In this document: positions 42,710 to 48,739 of the stretch, piece by piece | Layout: the number at the start of each line of letters is the position of its first letter | How positions within the stretch are numbered: the stretch's first letter is position 1 | IMG/VR virus record: IMGVR_UViG_3300037068_000078 | Coordinates: 1 to 64,000 of that record | Reading direction: 5' to 3' (one strand) | Source of the DNA: a virus | DNA length: 64,000 nucleotides | Position numbers and translations under genes: made by a program | The notes under the pieces: model-generated | The model's database searches: none | Told to the model about the DNA's origin: nothing | What the model saw: the letters and a program-made list of their open reading frames with translations, nothing else

Positions 42710-43189
42710 ATGTTTACGGAAGAGCTGAAACAACTGCTTGAGAAAGCCATCAAGCACGGAAACCGTGAAGCCAGAACTAGGATTGTGGTTCTGTCTGAGC
42801 ATGCTGGTGTCAGTGTGGTTTCGTATATCGAGCAAGAAGCTCAGCTAGAAGAAAAACAACAGCGATCTCCCGTGCAACACGCACCGCGTGAAAAGCTAGC
42901 AAAATTTCTGCAAGAGATCGAAGACACTGACTGGGATGGGGCCGGAGCTGAGACTCCGCCTGAGGAAGTGTTAGGCTCATTACAGCGGATGCGAGACAAT
43001 CATGACACATACGAAGAACTTTCAGATGGACAAAAGAGATTTGTCTCGCTGTTGGAGAACTTGTTTGACGCGCGTATGGCGTTTGAAGATGTTGACCGCG
43101 ACATGCTGTTCCCTTCAGGATTCCCAAGATATCGGAACAGCGCACGCAAAATGAAAGCGCTGGCAAAAGCAAACGGATGGAAGAAATGA
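42710..43189 (+). CDS. Hypothetical protein with low GC3
   Basis: Purine-rich RBS; many A/T-ending codons; ATGA overlap with the next gene. Confidence 0.6.
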   Translation: MFTEELKQLLEKAIKHGNREARTRIVVLSEHAGVSVVSYIEQEAQLEEKQQRSPVQHAPREKLAKFLQEIEDTDWDGAGAETPPEEVLGSLQRMRDNHDTYEELSDGQKRFVSLLENLFDARMAFEDVDRDMLFPSGFPRYRNSARKMKALAKANGWKK

Positions 43190-44136
43190 AGTCCGGCATC
43201 CAGCGCTTCTTCGCCTACGCACGCGCCCGCCACGAGATCACCCTGCGGCGGGCGCTGGGGCTACCGCGTCCGTGGACCAAGGACAGCATCCTTGACACGT
43301 ACCGCTTCACGTGCGTGTTCCGCGAGCAGGACAAGACAACCAAGTGGTTCCGGCAGAACGTGCGTGACCCCATGCGCAATGCACAGTCAGTGCTGCTAGC
43401 AACGGTGGTGTTCCGCATGCTCAATCGCATCGAGGTGGGCGAGGCCATCTTTCATGCCGAGTACAAGAACGGCGGCACGGCGTGGGATGCCTTCCTCGAG
43501 AGCCGCGACGTGCGCCACCTGCAGCGCGCCATCAAGCGAGCCATCCCGGACGGTCCCTACGTCACGGGCGGGTACATCATCACGTCTCCCCCCGGCTGCC
43601 CGAAGTTGGAGGGCATGATGAAGGTGATCAAGTCCTTTGAGCGGGGGGAGGAAGAGTGGGAGGGGCTTGGCGCTGGCATAATCGGCACGATGAATTGGGA
43701 CGGCGAGGAGGGGGCAGCAGAGTACATGCTGCACAATCGCGGCGATGTCACGCTCGAGAGTTGCTGGCGCTGGCTGCGTCGCTTCAAGTGGTTCGGTGAC
43801 TTCCACTCGTACGAGATCGTGACGGACCTGCGTCACACGCGACTGCTCGACATGGCACCTGACATCAACACTTGGGCCAATCCCGGCCCCGGTGCAAATC
43901 GCGGGGCGAACCGCGTGTACGGCCGTGACAAGGACACGCGCAATAGCAAGGAGAAGCTGAACGCGGAGATGCATGAACTTCTTGGTCATTCACTTGATAG
44001 CAAGTTGTGGCCGCAACGACCAGTCAATGAATGGCCAAGATGGGAGATGCGAGACGTAGAGCACACGCTCTGCGAGTTCGACAAGTACGAGCGCGTGCGG
44101 CTGGGCGAGGGGCGTCCTCGCGGAGTCTACAGGTGA
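43186..44136 (+). CDS. aGPT-PPlase1 family (alpha-glutamyl/putrescinyl-thymine pyrophosphorylase clade 1) DNA hypermodification enzyme
   Basis: PWT.D.IL..YRF..VFRE.DKTT, FR..NR, TG.YII, F.SYEIVTDL, NPGPGA.RG, RDVEHTLCEFDKY. Confidence 0.85.
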   Translation: MKSGIQRFFAYARARHEITLRRALGLPRPWTKDSILDTYRFTCVFREQDKTTKWFRQNVRDPMRNAQSVLLATVVFRMLNRIEVGEAIFHAEYKNGGTAWDAFLESRDVRHLQRAIKRAIPDGPYVTGGYIITSPPGCPKLEGMMKVIKSFERGEEEWEGLGAGIIGTMNWDGEEGAAEYMLHNRGDVTLESCWRWLRRFKWFGDFHSYEIVTDLRHTRLLDMAPDINTWANPGPGANRGANRVYGRDKDTRNSKEKLNAEMHELLGHSLDSKLWPQRPVNEWPRWEMRDVEHTLCEFDKYERVRLGEGRPRGVYR

Positions 44137-44137
44137 C

Positions 44138-44683
44138 ATGGCACTGACTGATGAAGAGAAAGAGAAGTTCCGGGCAGCGGTGACCAGCGGCGAATACTCC
44201 ATGTCGCAGATCGCCAGGATGTTCAACATGGTCTCAGTCAACGCGGCGATAGGGAGGGCGCACCGCATGGGTATCTCAAACGGCAGGGCACCGCTGAACA
44301 ATAACAAGCGCCGTTTACCCGAGGGCTCGGGTCTCGAGCTCATAAAGAAGATCGGGGCTGGCATACCGCGCAGGCCGCGCGGTCGTCCACCGGGCAGCAT
44401 GAGACTGACGTTCACGCCACCGCTCGGTGATGTCACGCCACCCAAGCTGAAGTTGATAGCAGAGTGGGACAAGAAGAAGTTTCCGCAGCCGAACGCCGCG
44501 TGCTTCGACTGCATCAACCTGTTCACGCAGTGCAAGTGGCCCATTCGTGATGAGCCAGTTCAGTTCTGCGGTGAGTTAAAGCGTGAAGCGAAACCGGGTG
44601 AGAAGTTGAACGATGTGCCGTATTGTGATAGGCACTCCAAGATGGCTAAACAGGAACCGTACAAGAAGGGAGAGCAGTGGTGA
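44138..44683 (+). CDS. gcrA: GcrA-like transcription regulator
   Basis: N-terminal S.SQIA....VS.NAAIGRAHRMG and C-terminal CKWPI...FCG...PYC..H. Confidence 0.8.
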   Translation: MALTDEEKEKFRAAVTSGEYSMSQIARMFNMVSVNAAIGRAHRMGISNGRAPLNNNKRRLPEGSGLELIKKIGAGIPRRPRGRPPGSMRLTFTPPLGDVTPPKLKLIAEWDKKKFPQPNAACFDCINLFTQCKWPIRDEPVQFCGELKREAKPGEKLNDVPYCDRHSKMAKQEPYKKGEQW

Positions 44684-45465
44684 GAGTTTATATCCCAAGC
44701 ATGGGCCGGGCGGGTGACATCGGCGCGAAGGTGATGACGTGCAACTACATTGACCGTGCGACCTACGTGGTGCCCTCGGCGGAGGTCAAGCGATATCAGA
44801 ACTCGCTCGGCATGCGCAAGGGCACGTACGAAGTACTTGCCTGCGACGAGGTCGGCATCGCGCAGACGCGGCGCTGGATCGGTGAGCAGGCCGCGTCGCG
44901 CAAGGAGGCCTCCTTCTGCATGATGGACGACGACCTGCGCTTTGCCGTGCGCGAGGGCAAGGATGGCATCAAGCTGCGCAATGCCGAGCGCCCGGACGTG
45001 GCAGCGATGCTGGAGTGGATTGCGGGCAGCTTAGGCAAGTACGCGCACGTCAGCGTATCGGCGCGTGACAAGAACCACACGAACACAGACGCGCATGACG
45101 TCAACTGTCGCACCCTGCGCGTGCTGGCCTACCAGACCAAGAAGTTCTTGGCGATGGAGCACGGGCGGGTGGCCGTGATGGAGGACTTCGACGTCAACCT
45201 GCAGCTGTTGCGCAGCGGCGAACAGAACATCTGCTCGTTCGTGTTCGCCAGCGACCAGCGCGAGACGGGATCCAAGGGTGGGTGCAGCAGCTACCGCACG
45301 TTGGAACTGCACAACGCAGCTGCGCATCGCATCGTGGAGCTTCACGCGCCCTTCGCCAAGCTGCGTGAGAAGGAGACCAAGGCCAAGGGCGTGTTGAGCA
45401 AGCGCATGGAGGTCACTATCTTTTGGAAGAAAGCGTTCGCATCGAGCCAGAGGAGAGCCGCATGA
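44677..45465 (+). CDS. GT-A glycosyltransferase (TET-associated/GREB1/JGT-like family)
   Basis: VYIPS.GRA, VVP..E...Y, GI..TR.WI, MMDDDL.F, EDFD..LQLL..G, GGCS.YR. Confidence 0.75.
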   Translation: MVRVYIPSMGRAGDIGAKVMTCNYIDRATYVVPSAEVKRYQNSLGMRKGTYEVLACDEVGIAQTRRWIGEQAASRKEASFCMMDDDLRFAVREGKDGIKLRNAERPDVAAMLEWIAGSLGKYAHVSVSARDKNHTNTDAHDVNCRTLRVLAYQTKKFLAMEHGRVAVMEDFDVNLQLLRSGEQNICSFVFASDQRETGSKGGCSSYRTLELHNAAAHRIVELHAPFAKLREKETKAKGVLSKRMEVTIFWKKAFASSQRRAA

Positions 45466-45710
45466 ATAACCCGTACGTTTGGGCCGCGCTCGCTGTTGCC
45501 GTTACACTGTGTGCACTTGGTGCAGCGTGGCGGATGGCGCACCGCGCGGAGCGTCACAGCCGCGATGAGTACGACCGGTTGATGCGCCGCGTGGGCACGG
45601 ACGGCGCGTACTACTACGGCGAAAGCGACACGGTCTATGACGAGTCCGGCATGTCGGCGGGCTTCGGCGTGGGACCACTGATCAAGAAGGATGGGAAAGA
45701 TGGCGTATAA
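45462..45710 (+). CDS. Small membrane-anchored protein
   Basis: SD GAGGAG; N-terminal TM helix. Confidence 0.55.
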   Translation: MNNPYVWAALAVAVTLCALGAAWRMAHRAERHSRDEYDRLMRRVGTDGAYYYGESDTVYDESGMSAGFGVGPLIKKDGKDGV

Positions 45711-46674
45711 GCAGGAGCCGCCGTTCGCGGTGCAGATCGAGCTCGCAGAGGGGTGCAACCTGCGCTGCTCCTTCTGCGGGCTGAATGGCATACGCGGCAA
45801 GGAGAACGACTTCAAGGTGATGACGGACAAGGTGCTGCAGTCCGCCATCAAGCAAATGCTGGCGTTGAACTGGAACCCGCGCATTGAGTTCGCAATGCAC
45901 GGCGAGCCCACCATGCATCCAGGCTTCGTGGACATGGTGAAGATCGTGCGCTGGCTCGCGCCCAAGTTCCACATCATGATGACCAGCAACGGCGGCGGAC
46001 TGCTGAAGAAGCCGGGGCCGGTGCAGCTGATTAAGGACCTGTTCGACGGTGGGCTCAACTGCCTAGCGCTGGACGACTACCAGGACGCGAAGCTGGTGCC
46101 GAAGATCCGCGCGGCACTGGGGAACAACCTGGGCGAGCACGTGGACGCGCAGGTGTACGAATATCCGGAGGACAAACGTGGCAACCCGCACGCAAGACAT
46201 CATCGACGCTCACTCGTCTTCATTCAAGCGATTGATGCAGCAACGACAGGAACTCACTCGCATCTCAACAATCATGCTGGAGCGGGAGCTCCTCCTAATG
46301 ATGACGGCGCTGGGAAGAGATGCGCTAAGCCATTTCGCGAACTTTCAATACGATGGGACGGTAACGTGGCGGTCTGCTGCAATGACTGGCGAGGTGTTTA
46401 CAAATGCGGAAATGTTGTTTCGGACGGTCTTGACACCGTCTGGAATGGTGATCCAATGCGCGCTGCCAGAGTTAAGCTCTACCACGGAGAGCGAGACTTT
46501 GGTCCATGCAACGGCTGCGATGCTAAGTCGGATCGCGTCGGACTTCTTCCAGATAAATTCGGCCGTGAGGATCTACCGAGAGTTTCAGCCGCCGTCAAGC
46601 GAGCAATCGGAGCCGCGCTTGAAGGTGATAGTTATACAAAAGCTGTACTGAGACCATGGGAGGTGGGGAAGTGA
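45691..46674 (+). CDS. Radical SAM enzyme with a twitch/SPASM domain
   Basis: CNLRCSFC, HGEP, TSNG, CAKPF...WDG.V.VCCND, CNGC. Confidence 0.9.
   Translation: MGKMAYKQEPPFAVQIELAEGCNLRCSFCGLNGIRGKENDFKVMTDKVLQSAIKQMLALNWNPRIEFAMHGEPTMHPGFVDMVKIVRWLAPKFHIMMTSNGGGLLKKPGPVQLIKDLFDGGLNCLALDDYQDAKLVPKIRAALGNNLGEHVDAQVYEYPEDKRGNPHARHHRRSLVFIQAIDAATTGTHSHLNNHAGAGAPPNDDGAGKRCAKPFRELSIRWDGNVAVCCNDWRGVYKCGNVVSDGLDTVWNGDPMRAARVKLYHGERDFGPCNGCDAKSDRVGLLPDKFGREDLPRVSAAVKRAIGAALEGDSYTKAVLRPWEVGK
46178..46651 (+). CDS. Overprinted 157-aa gene nested in the +1 frame of the radical SAM gene
   Basis: GGAGGA 5 nt before GTG. Host-frame GC3 falls abruptly over this interval. Confidence 0.7.
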   Translation: MATRTQDIIDAHSSSFKRLMQQRQELTRISTIMLERELLLMMTALGRDALSHFANFQYDGTVTWRSAAMTGEVFTNAEMLFRTVLTPSGMVIQCALPELSSTTESETLVHATAAMLSRIASDFFQINSAVRIYREFQPPSSEQSEPRLKVIVIQKLY

Positions 46675-46883
46675 ATACAGAAGAGAACACAGTTAAGCTG
46701 GTGGGACAGATAGAGAGGCGCACCGACTACATCGCCACCATCAACGGCGTGCTTCATCAGCTGTGGTGCCTCACGGACATGGCCCAGTATCACCAGCGAT
46801 GGGAGTGGCGCAAGGTGCCGTTCTACTCCAACGAGGAGGCATTGAAGATCGGTACGATCGTGGGAGGAGACAAGGCGCTGTGA
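46671..46883 (+). CDS. Hypothetical protein
   Basis: GTGA coupling; SD GGAGG. Confidence 0.55.
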   Translation: MNTEENTVKLVGQIERRTDYIATINGVLHQLWCLTDMAQYHQRWEWRKVPFYSNEEALKIGTIVGGDKAL

Positions 46884-47356: not shown

Positions 47357-47663
47357 GTGTAGTTGCTACGCGGCTGACGCCGTGGCTGCAGAGAACTTGA
47401 ACTACGACGTGGCGTGGGCAGCTGCTCACTCCGCTGAGTTAGCGGCGACGTTGAACGGAATATGTAAGGAGGCGTACCCGTACTACGTCAACACCGTAGT
47501 CGTCATGCTGCTGCGGAGCGTAGCAATACACACCAAGGGCAAGAGGAAGGAGGACGAGCGCTTTTTGGAGATACTGGAGACGCTCGTGGGTGATGTTAAA
47601 ATGCGCGACGACGTATTGAACGCGCTGCTGGAGCGCAACAGAGAGGGAAGAACCAATCAATGA
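47343..47663 (+). CDS. Hypothetical protein
   Basis: SD GAGGAG; ATGA coupling to the TS gene. Confidence 0.55.
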   Translation: MKMPECSCYAADAVAAENLNYDVAWAAAHSAELAATLNGICKEAYPYYVNTVVVMLLRSVAIHTKGKRKEDERFLEILETLVGDVKMRDDVLNALLERNREGRTNQ

Positions 47664-48739
47664 AAGTCATCAAGGGCCGGAACGTGAATGGGCTTTATGC
47701 CGTGGGCCACGACTACTTGACGTCGTATGGCGAGGAGGGGACGTCGCGCGCGGGGTCGGTGCTGGTATCACCCAAGCCCGTCACCTCGGTGTACCTGCAG
47801 CCGCGCGAGCGCGTGCTGTTCGACGCCGTGCGCAACGCCAACCCGTTCTTCCACATGATGGAGGGGCTGTGGATGCTGGCAGGACGCAGCGACGCCAAGT
47901 TTCTGAACCACTACGTGCGCGACTTCGGCAAGAATTTTGCGGAGGATGGTCTGTACATTCACGGCGCGTATGGTGACAGGTGGCGGAGCGCATTCGGCTT
48001 CGACCAGCTGACTGAGATTGTGGACAAGCTGCGCAAGAACCCGGACGACCGCCAGTGCGTATTGCAGATGTGGGACTCGCGCCCTGGCGCGCAGCACGAC
48101 GCGGGATGCGACGACCTGATGGGCGAGTGGAAGGACCGGCCCTGCAACACGCAGGCGTTCTTCCGCGTGCGCAAGGAGCACACGTTTCGGTTTCGCGGCG
48201 GCGAGTCGACCTACGACGACAAGCTCGACATGACCATCTGCTGCCGCAGCAACGACATCGTGTGGGGTGCCTACGGCGCGAACGCCGTGCACTTCAGCAT
48301 GCTGCAGGAGTACATGGCCGGGCGCATCGGCGTGGATGTCGGCACGCTCTATCAGGTGTCGAACAACTACCACGGTTATACGGCGGTGCTCGACGCGCTG
48401 GGCGACCCCATGCTGCAGGAGAGCGATCTGTACACCAGCGGCGAGGTCCACGCGCTGGACATGGGCACCGACTGGGGCAGGTGGGACGAGGACCTGAAGC
48501 ACTTCATGAAGTGGCACGACGACATTTTGTGGGCTGAGGGCCACGTGTCGTTCGGGACGAGCTTCTTCAACGAGTGGTTCACGCAGGTACCGATGCGCGC
48601 GGCTATTTCCAATTGGTGTCACCGCCGAGGCGACAAGGAGAAAGCGCTCGACTTCGCAAGTCGCATCGCCGCAAGCGACTGGCGCACCGCCTGCACGCAG
48701 TGGCTTCAGCGCAGGTACGACGGGAGCAACGGCAAGTGA
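47660..48739 (+). CDS. Thymidylate synthase homolog, probable dUMP hydroxymethylase
   Basis: NPFFH.ME..WMLAG, GAYG.RW, catalytic PCN, RSNDIVWG..GAN..HF (Asn indicates dUMP specificity), NNYH.Y. Confidence 0.85.
   Translation: MKVIKGRNVNGLYAVGHDYLTSYGEEGTSRAGSVLVSPKPVTSVYLQPRERVLFDAVRNANPFFHMMEGLWMLAGRSDAKFLNHYVRDFGKNFAEDGLYIHGAYGDRWRSAFGFDQLTEIVDKLRKNPDDRQCVLQMWDSRPGAQHDAGCDDLMGEWKDRPCNTQAFFRVRKEHTFRFRGGESTYDDKLDMTICCRSNDIVWGAYGANAVHFSMLQEYMAGRIGVDVGTLYQVSNNYHGYTAVLDALGDPMLQESDLYTSGEVHALDMGTDWGRWDEDLKHFMKWHDDILWAEGHVSFGTSFFNEWFTQVPMRAAISNWCHRRGDKEKALDFASRIAASDWRTACTQWLQRRYDGSNGK

Follow-up and report, generated by a model that had tools for sequence, protein, structure and literature searches.

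Does the radical SAM gene of this virus carry a second gene, overprinted in the +1 frame of its 3′ half, or is the long open frame found there a by-product of the way in which the host gene is spelled at its synonymous sites? The stretch analyzed here (the window) comes from an IMG/VR virus record of 77.7 kb, of which it forms the first 64 kb; the GC content is 0.61. Judged by the predicted functions of its neighbors, the gene that hosts the open frame sits in a cluster of the thymidine-hypermodification type; phage clusters of this type with a radical SAM enzyme (M6 gp53, which is of a different type) are described in PMC8989533. The genes concerned are the following.

43177-44136: 5-hmdU DNA kinase-like gene, cluster member
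44138-44683: GcrA-like gene, cluster member
44677-45465: TAGT-like glycosyltransferase gene, cluster member
45703..46674, plus strand: host gene of the open frame, a radical SAM enzyme with a C-terminal SPASM domain, 324 aa (Pfam PF04055 and PF13186)
46671..46883, plus strand: downstream small gene, whose GTG at 46671 (probably the start) overlaps the host stop (GTGA) and is preceded by GGGAGG
47660-48739: thymidylate-synthase homolog, cluster member

The host protein scores 36.5 bits against PF04055 Radical_SAM (cutoff, 29.5) and 46.5 bits against PF13186 SPASM (cutoff, 21.5), with the SPASM domain spanning host residues 211 to 277, and a CX3CX2C motif (CNLRCSFC) lies near its N terminus, at residues 22 to 29 in the 327-aa form. 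An alternative ATG is present at 45691. When used as a query, the protein returned 1295 homologs at an E value of ≤1e-60, the called protein, P0001, beginning with MAYKQ. It aligns with these homologs from end to end, and the cysteines of both CNLRCSFC and CCNDW...C...C..C are conserved, so that the host Cys motifs are indeed retained, as an earlier first-pass annotation of this DNA had stated. The host frame is thus coding along its whole length, and the protein belongs to the radical SAM/SPASM class; a frameshifted or broken host gene was rejected since the host frame aligns with the homologs throughout. The small gene directly downstream matched no Pfam or PHROGs family. Within the cluster, the GcrA-like gene hints at a GC-rich alphaproteobacterium as the host of the phage.

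An open frame on shifted third positions

The first-pass annotation had proposed a hidden gene in the 3′ half of the radical SAM gene, and the motif, spacer, start, stop, and length on which it relied are all present exactly where it had placed them.

46159..46650, plus strand: block of low host GC3 (0.45, against 0.90 upstream), with a maximum-likelihood change point at 46159
46167..46172, plus strand: Shine-Dalgarno-like GGAGGA, formed by the host Pro-Glu-Asp codons (CCG GAG GAC)
46178..46651, plus strand: ORF2, a 157-codon open frame, +1 relative to the host gene and a candidate overprinted gene, running from GTG to TGA (46649-46651)

The GGAGGA motif is separated from the GTG at 46178 by a spacer of 5 nt (CAAAC). 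Measured from stop to stop, the +1 frame comprises 194 open codons, being open from 46067 after a TAG at 46064, and the +2 frame over the same stretch contains 16 stops. Since no more than 23 nt separate the ORF2 stop from the host stop, the end of the low-GC3 block at this point is uninformative. At the other end, the change point precedes the ORF2 start by less than about 20 nt, which bears out the switch in host third positions reported near the start codon. The manual counts behind that report were exact (A/T-ending host codons, 7/52 before and 25/40 after 46177), and A/T-ending codons do stay high to the stop (89/158 across the whole overlap).

Third positions in the block consist of A (0.24), C (0.29), G (0.15), and T (0.32), and positions 1 and 2 are unchanged in character. 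The shift takes the form of a replacement of G-ending codons (GTG, CTG, GCG, and GGG) by T-, C-, and A-ending ones in the C half. Val is encoded by GTG at 10 of 10 positions in the N half and at 1 to 2 of 13 in the C half, where GTC/GTT and CTT/CTC are used; CTG, which accounts for 12 of the 17 Leu codons in the N half, is absent from the C half until the single one (46648) that forms the ORF2 stop, again as claimed. NTG codons in the window (2/22) are scarcer than other G-ending codons (18/84), in a ratio among the lowest in the family. A rough scan of the high-GC3 ORFs found no comparable intragenic GC3 dip elsewhere in the 64 kb, the other apparent dips inside genes of the window being discarded as shadow-frame extensions of stop-to-stop ORFs. 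A variable region of the DGR type was rejected because the 77.7-kb genome holds no second copy of the segment, and an assembly chimera was rejected because L032, an independent soil metagenome contig and the closest relative compared at the DNA level (74% amino acid identity), dips at the same place. The GC3 shift is real, confined to synonymous sites, and lineage-specific, and it is the best argument for overprinting.

How improbable the open frame appears, given this shift, depends on the null that is chosen, namely, the C half's own codon usage or that of low-GC homologs. A stop in the +1 frame needs NTA before A or G, or NTG before A, and almost all such stops in this GC-rich gene are of the latter kind (TGA). 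The N half contains 10 +1 stops, and the C half, with 16 at-risk dipeptides, contains none. With the window's own C-half usage, the expectation is 2.0 stops, and the probability of finding none is 0.075 to 0.11; the corresponding values for L032 with its own usage are 1.5 to 1.7 stops and 0.08 to 0.18. Under low-GC homolog usage, 4.9 stops are expected in the window (P = 0.0008 for none), and the probability for L032 is 0.004. With the local codon usage taken into account, the avoidance of stops at individual sites falls short of significance (P = 0.08 to 0.18), and it is the codon-usage shift that leaves the +1 frame open. Since it was the open frame that led to the choice of this window, L032 is the only independent replicate (P about 0.1 to 0.18). 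Alternative frames that stay open for about 160 codons occur commonly among GC-rich members of the family: L002, L039, and L055, as well as the partial loci L062 and L065, have no +2 stop in the C half.

We consider it most likely, with a probability of about one-half, that ORF2 is an unselected open frame riding on a synonymous-site anomaly, a figure that covers both the translation-pause mechanism discussed below and unknown causes. According to this explanation, a lineage-specific third-position shift in the 3′ half of the radical SAM/SPASM gene would leave an open shadow frame: with the G-ending codons replaced, the 16 at-risk dipeptides give about two expected stops, and the frame is then open by chance in roughly 1 case in 10. 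The shift would act on the host's own synonymous sites, be it through codon choice, through mRNA properties, or as a recoded tract, and such a tract might be neutral and have spread among close relatives by homologous recombination. It would not act through the amino acid sequence of ORF2, because its carriers keep A/T-rich third positions with different bases and because the +1 protein drifts as if unconstrained.

The product of ORF2 was also examined on its own. It has no match in Pfam or PHROGs, and a word-index search found no homolog among 5.8 billion proteins. Against 1.84 billion representatives, the only true match was L032's own +1 ORF; two repeat proteins that matched ORF2 over 52 and 29 residues in the same search were taken as spurious, given that only short stretches were involved. 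The L032 ORF is present in the public catalogue solely as a call from a read-level assembly, and this entry is no evidence of a gene. A single-sequence AlphaFold2 model of ORF2 has a mean pLDDT of 55 and no confident fold, with the N-terminal ~45 residues modeled as one long helix (pLDDT about 60 to 70). The protein-like composition by which the product had been set apart from shadow frames is real as far as its normal look is concerned, but its combined R, S, P, G, C, and W count is 39 against 39.0 in synonymous shuffles, because low host GC3 by itself yields such a composition. With third-position composition held fixed, the hydrophobicity autocorrelations, the helical moment, and the R/S/P/G/C/W count that depend on the arrangement of these positions were all within the range of the shuffles. 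On the opposite strand, an antisense gene was rejected, as there is no minus-strand ORF of at least 60 aa between 46058 and 46823. As to the possibility that a +1 frameshift fuses ORF2 to the radical SAM core, inspection of the window and L032 by eye brought up no slippery motif shared by the two.

Relatives and selection on the +1 product

For comparison at the DNA level, we collected 30 viral and 35 metagenome homolog loci of 43 to 73% identity, to which a second viral scan added more. Except for L032, all of these homologs show a uniform GC3 along the gene, whatever their GC content, and about 40 more distant ones carry 1 to 13 +1-frame stops each in the homologous half. L032 has a GC3 of 0.90 in its N half and of 0.65 in its C half, and its +1 frame contains no stop: a 158-codon ORF starts with ATG at the homologous codon (GAT-GGC, versus CGT-GGC in the window), is preceded by GGAG 7 nt upstream of the ATG, and ends at the same CTG-AGR as in the window. 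From the ATG onward, GC3 in L032 dips for about 43 codons (0.45), then rises to ~0.85, and settles near 0.65 to 0.75. This dip corresponds to the linker, host residues ~163 to 206, and ends at the start of SPASM. Past residue ~46, where host GC3 is 0.68 to 0.76, the L032 ORF2 is rich in S, T, A, P, and R, and overall its +1 frame has seven Cys/Trp codons, as in other shadow frames. Stops in the +1 frame of close, equally low-GC3 homologs had been named as the observation that would speak against a hidden gene, and here the outcome is divided: the close relative L032 is open with a start at the same place, but low-GC3 homologs (L006, L041, L056, L059, and L060), which are distant, with 50 to 65% amino acid identity, have 2 to 8 stops.

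Closer relatives are known as proteins (P0002 to P0010, 71 to 77% identical). Protein alignment indicates that ATG, GTG, or TTG is impossible at the homologous codon in P0003 and P0004 (Lys-Gly) and in P0008 (Ala-Gly), and P0003 and P0004 have Pro-Ala at the motif site, without the Pro-Glu that gives GGAG, so that the motif cannot be conserved there. As far as these alignments go, the three start-impossible codons count toward the unselected reading. A rescan of viral contigs with the clade alignment and of GTDB genomes yielded no relative closer than 64%, and the phage collection yielded no DNA match to the segment. Sequencing runs of relatives gave scattered 151-nt contigs, none of which bridges the 46160 boundary; inside the block, those of X2 and X3 do not differ from the window. 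A contig of X5, which covers 46295-46445, has nine differences from the window; of the five listed (46344-46410), four are host-synonymous, and together they alter ORF2 at four codons (F>Y, V>E, N>S, and E>G). Such host-synonymous, ORF2-changing differences likewise count toward the unselected reading.

To judge conservation between the window and L032, we used a null in which synonymous host codons were permuted within the region in both genomes. Identity between the products of ORF2 is 0.344, against 0.312±0.031 in the shuffles, and the +2 control frame also reaches 0.344; BLASTP aligned them at 38% over 146 aligned positions, and the +1 BLOSUM similarity of the whole of ORF2 was not significant (P = 0.14). 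Between these two sequences, then, the +1 protein shows no conservation above that imposed by the host frame. At conserved host residues, codon identity in the N half is 0.676 versus a null of 0.651, synonymous sites being saturated. For the same two sequences, it is 0.431 versus 0.419 in the SPASM part, which is no excess, and 0.286 versus 0.223 in the tail, which is at the null. One patch behaves differently.

46180..46326, plus strand: patch of host codons 163-212 (the radical SAM-SPASM linker), corresponding to ORF2 residues 1-50

This is the only part with low GC3 in both genomes (0.41 in the window and 0.45 in L032). Its codon identity is 0.512 versus a null of 0.361 (P = 0.012), a weak excess drawn from two sequences, and its +1 BLOSUM similarity is likewise weakly elevated (P = 0.019), versus a nonsignificant value in the +2 frame (P = 0.19). 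The RNA of the patch is less folded than that of the shuffles, in both genomes, with z scores of +1.5 and +1.1. Reduced host synonymous change is thus not seen across the overlap between the window and L032; the weak excess is limited to the first 50 codons. The synonymous-constraint analysis that had been proposed as a check on the hidden gene, in the form of this pairwise comparison, shows a weak constraint over the first 50 codons and leaves two-thirds of ORF2 unconstrained. To speak of "strong evidence for a real hidden gene," as the first-pass annotation had done, is too much: the +1 product is conserved no better than the shuffled null or the +2 frame, the L032 product is shadow-like after ~46 residues, and stop avoidance at individual sites is nonsignificant.

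Alternative origins of the shift

Several observations nevertheless count against the unselected reading. The GC3 collapse lies near the ORF2 start and is the sole such case found in the 64 kb; it is explained neither by import from a mid-GC relative nor as a family-wide codon feature of the linker. L032 is open, with a shared start and Shine-Dalgarno-like motif, and the distant homologs are all closed. The first 50 codons show their weak similarity excess (P about 0.01 to 0.02), and NTG is rare. It is quite possible, though less likely than the unselected reading, that ORF2 represents a genuine gene or proto-gene recently born by overprinting, perhaps one in which only the N-terminal ~45 residues are shared. 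In the common ancestor of the window and L032, the +1 frame would already have been open, starting at the Gly of GNPH behind a Shine-Dalgarno-like motif; the N-terminal ~45 residues would be the older, shared part, and the window lineage would have recoded the rest into a 157-aa product. By host-synonymous changes only, L032 would have been recoded over the first ~45 codons and the window over all 157. Because of its location in a thymidine-hypermodification cluster, the product might assist that pathway as an accessory protein or regulate it.

This proposal draws on the restriction of the GC3 collapse to third positions and its match to the ORF limits, as well as on the make-up of these positions (T,.32; C,.29; A,.24; G,.15), which resembles the composition typical of second codon positions. 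It would also accommodate the open frame of L032, with its start in the same place and a dip that begins at its ATG; the patch, with its excess in codon identity and a +1 similarity not matched in the +2 frame; the depletion of NTG in the window, and hence of Cys, Trp, and stop in ORF2; and the lack of an open +1 frame in any homolog other than L032 among the loci compared. What counts against a young gene is that two-thirds of ORF2 are without constraint, that the L032 tail looks noncoding, that stop avoidance at individual sites does not reach significance, and that a start at the homologous codon is impossible in P0003, P0004, and P0008. A wholesale shift in composition is unlike selection for particular residues, and the arrangement tests were null; the product lacks both a homolog and a confidently predicted fold; and it was the open frame itself that drew attention to the window, leaving L032 as the sole independent replicate.

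Alternatively, the shift could stem from selection on translation or on the mRNA, with rare A/T-ending codons and weak RNA structure slowing elongation at the domain boundary and the open frame arising by chance. Such a pause could aid cotranslational folding or the loading of the Fe-S cluster before SPASM is made. It is one possible mechanism within the explanation that we prefer, and we regard it, as this specific mechanism, as unlikely. It agrees well with the dip in L032, which covers exactly the linker and ends where SPASM begins, with the finding that both lineages are A/T-rich at third positions but often with different bases, with the low structure of the patch RNA in both, and with the internal Shine-Dalgarno-like GGAGGA at the patch start. 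However, no linker dip is seen on average in 13 further GC-rich homologs whose domains are arranged in the same way, so that among homologs of this architecture the dip is confined to the window and L032. The block in the window extends over 165 codons, to the end of the gene, whereas rare-codon clusters are usually far shorter, and changes from G-ending to C-ending codons (GTG to GTC) do not lead toward rare codons.

The first-pass annotation had itself named an AT-richer domain acquired by recombination as the alternative to a hidden gene. In such an intragenic mosaic, the linker and SPASM half would have come from a lower-GC relative by homologous recombination, and the open frame would again be due to chance. 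The third-position make-up of the block (T>C>A>G) does equal that of mid-GC homologs (L006, L041, L059, and L060), and the small ORFs that flank the radical SAM gene on either side differ between the window and L032, which has no recognizable counterpart of the 46671..46883 gene directly 3′ of its radical SAM gene. The codon-identity excess of the patch could reflect a more recently shared tract, and the 151-nt contigs of X4, possibly not from one strain, show a breakpoint-like pattern, with 4 differences from the window over 46201-46351 versus 20 over 46040-46190. Even so, the alternative fits poorly, as only third positions are shifted. Across the family, GC at positions 1 and 2 of the C half tracks GC3 (r = 0.86); the C half of the window has 0.583 at these positions versus 0.516 predicted from its GC3 (0.44), a deviation of +3.5 residual SD, and a GC3 of 0.9 predicts 0.586, near the value found. 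The amino acid changes specific to the window have no AT bias and number 14 in each half, and its C half shows no acceleration and still has its nearest relatives in the same clade (P0002, 0.87 to 0.88). In sampling that is thin, no DNA-level donor appears among 84 loci, all matches being at ≤75%. Finally, synonymous sites between the window and L032 are saturated, and an old import should have drifted toward the GC3 of the genome. We therefore consider a mosaic improbable.

Least probable of all is a nucleic acid element (a protein-binding site, a processing site, or similar) that lies within the ~150-nt patch at 46180-46326 and limits synonymous change there: the codon-identity excess of the patch, two 14-nt runs identical in the window and L032 (one containing the palindrome GGAGCTCC), and the peak in identity of the relatives' reads at the patch would suit it, but there is no Rfam match and no promoter-like or terminator-like site in the ORF2 region and no stable or covarying structure, and the low GC3 downstream to 46650 is left unexplained.

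Known systems and significance

Nested genes of phages, such as Rz1 inside Rz of lambda and the overprinted genes of phiX174, have demonstrated products and are conserved among relatives. Like them, ORF2 is contained entirely in a longer gene, occupies the +1 frame, and has a Shine-Dalgarno-like motif and a start of its own, and the third positions of the host are the second positions of the nested frame. Unlike them, it is conserved no better than chance between its only two carriers. If it were nevertheless translated and functional, it would represent a rare, datable birth of a gene by overprinting in a phage, with the two lineages recording two stages of recoding, and it would add to the thymidine-hypermodification cluster an unannotated component of a kind that gene callers miss by design.

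A second point of reference is given by the shadow ORFs of GC-rich genomes, which are long but have no function. ORF2 shares with these a long open alternative frame, of which the window has many (for example, the 160-aa frame at 48055-48537 inside the thymidylate-synthase homolog). Shadow ORFs, however, normally lie on DNA of high GC3 and abound in R, S, P, G, and A, whereas ORF2 is on the one low-GC3 stretch and looks protein-like for that reason. If ORF2 is not a gene, it serves as a caution that a third-position shift alone can make a shadow frame protein-like and remove its stops, and the real puzzle is then a synonymous-only collapse of GC3 inside a conserved enzyme gene.

With respect to the host enzyme, the nearest described system is M6 gp53, a radical SAM isomerase of Pseudomonas phage M6 that acts on 5-hmdU-derived bases in DNA, resembles spore photoproduct lyase, and has its cluster motif at residue 125 (PMC8989533); the excerpted text of that paper mentions no gene nested in gp53. 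The enzyme in the window is likewise a radical SAM protein in a phage cluster with 5-hmdU kinase-like, thymidylate-synthase, and TAGT-like genes, but it differs in having its CX3CX2C motif at residues 22 to 29 and in carrying a SPASM domain. In a tblastn search of the phage collection, the only proteins recovered with it were of the Campylobacter phage "BtrN" type, at about 21% identity.

Identical stretches within the nested-frame region

Comparison of the window with L032, the soil metagenome contig that carries the closest radical SAM relative with available DNA, revealed two 14-nt stretches that are fully identical, although synonymous sites elsewhere are saturated:

46276-46289 (L032 3574-3587): first identical run, CATCTCAACAATCA
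46297-46310 (L032 3595-3608): second identical run, GCGGGAGCTCCTCC, which contains the 8-bp palindrome GGAGCTCC

The +1 ORF of L032 (3476-3952) is itself found among the predicted proteins of a public catalogue, as a single entry from one sequencing run. Gene calling on short contigs thus does pick up nested frames for which nothing points to a function.

The radical SAM family and the 3' boundary of the gene

The family to which the window's radical SAM/SPASM gene (45703-46674) belongs is large, comprising 1295 proteins at E<=1e-60, and members are found on viral contigs with GC contents from 0.38 to 0.65, from samples that range from marine to soil. The radical SAM protein of phage M6 is SPL-like, and the window's family appears to be distinct from this type. 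In both phages a small gene lies immediately 3' of the radical SAM gene:

46671-46883 in the window, 3957-4130 in L032: the next small gene in each phage

In the window, the start of this gene is probably a GTG that overlaps the radical SAM stop codon (GTGA). Since no similarity was found between the downstream small genes of the window and L032, a mosaic junction is present where the radical SAM gene ends.

Further genes of the modification cluster and a possible host

Three other reading frames were considered in and around the cluster:

42710-43189, +: 159-aa gene at the cluster edge
44138-44683, +: GcrA-like gene (Pfam PF07750) inside the cluster
45462-45710, +: 82-aa ORF between the TAGT-like and radical SAM genes

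Neither the 159-aa gene nor the 82-aa ORF matched a PHROGs family. GC3 of the former is low (A.31, C.18, G.30 and T.21 at third codon positions), and its odd composition spans the whole gene, whereas in the radical SAM gene it is confined to a half-gene block. The 82-aa ORF, which contains a hydrophobic N-terminal stretch (MNNPYVWAALAVAVTLCALGAAW...), is absent from L032; there, 25 nt separate the TAGT-like gene from the radical SAM gene. The presence of the GcrA-like gene hints at an alphaproteobacterial host, and the sequence occurs in metagenomes from rhizosphere, root, and soil.
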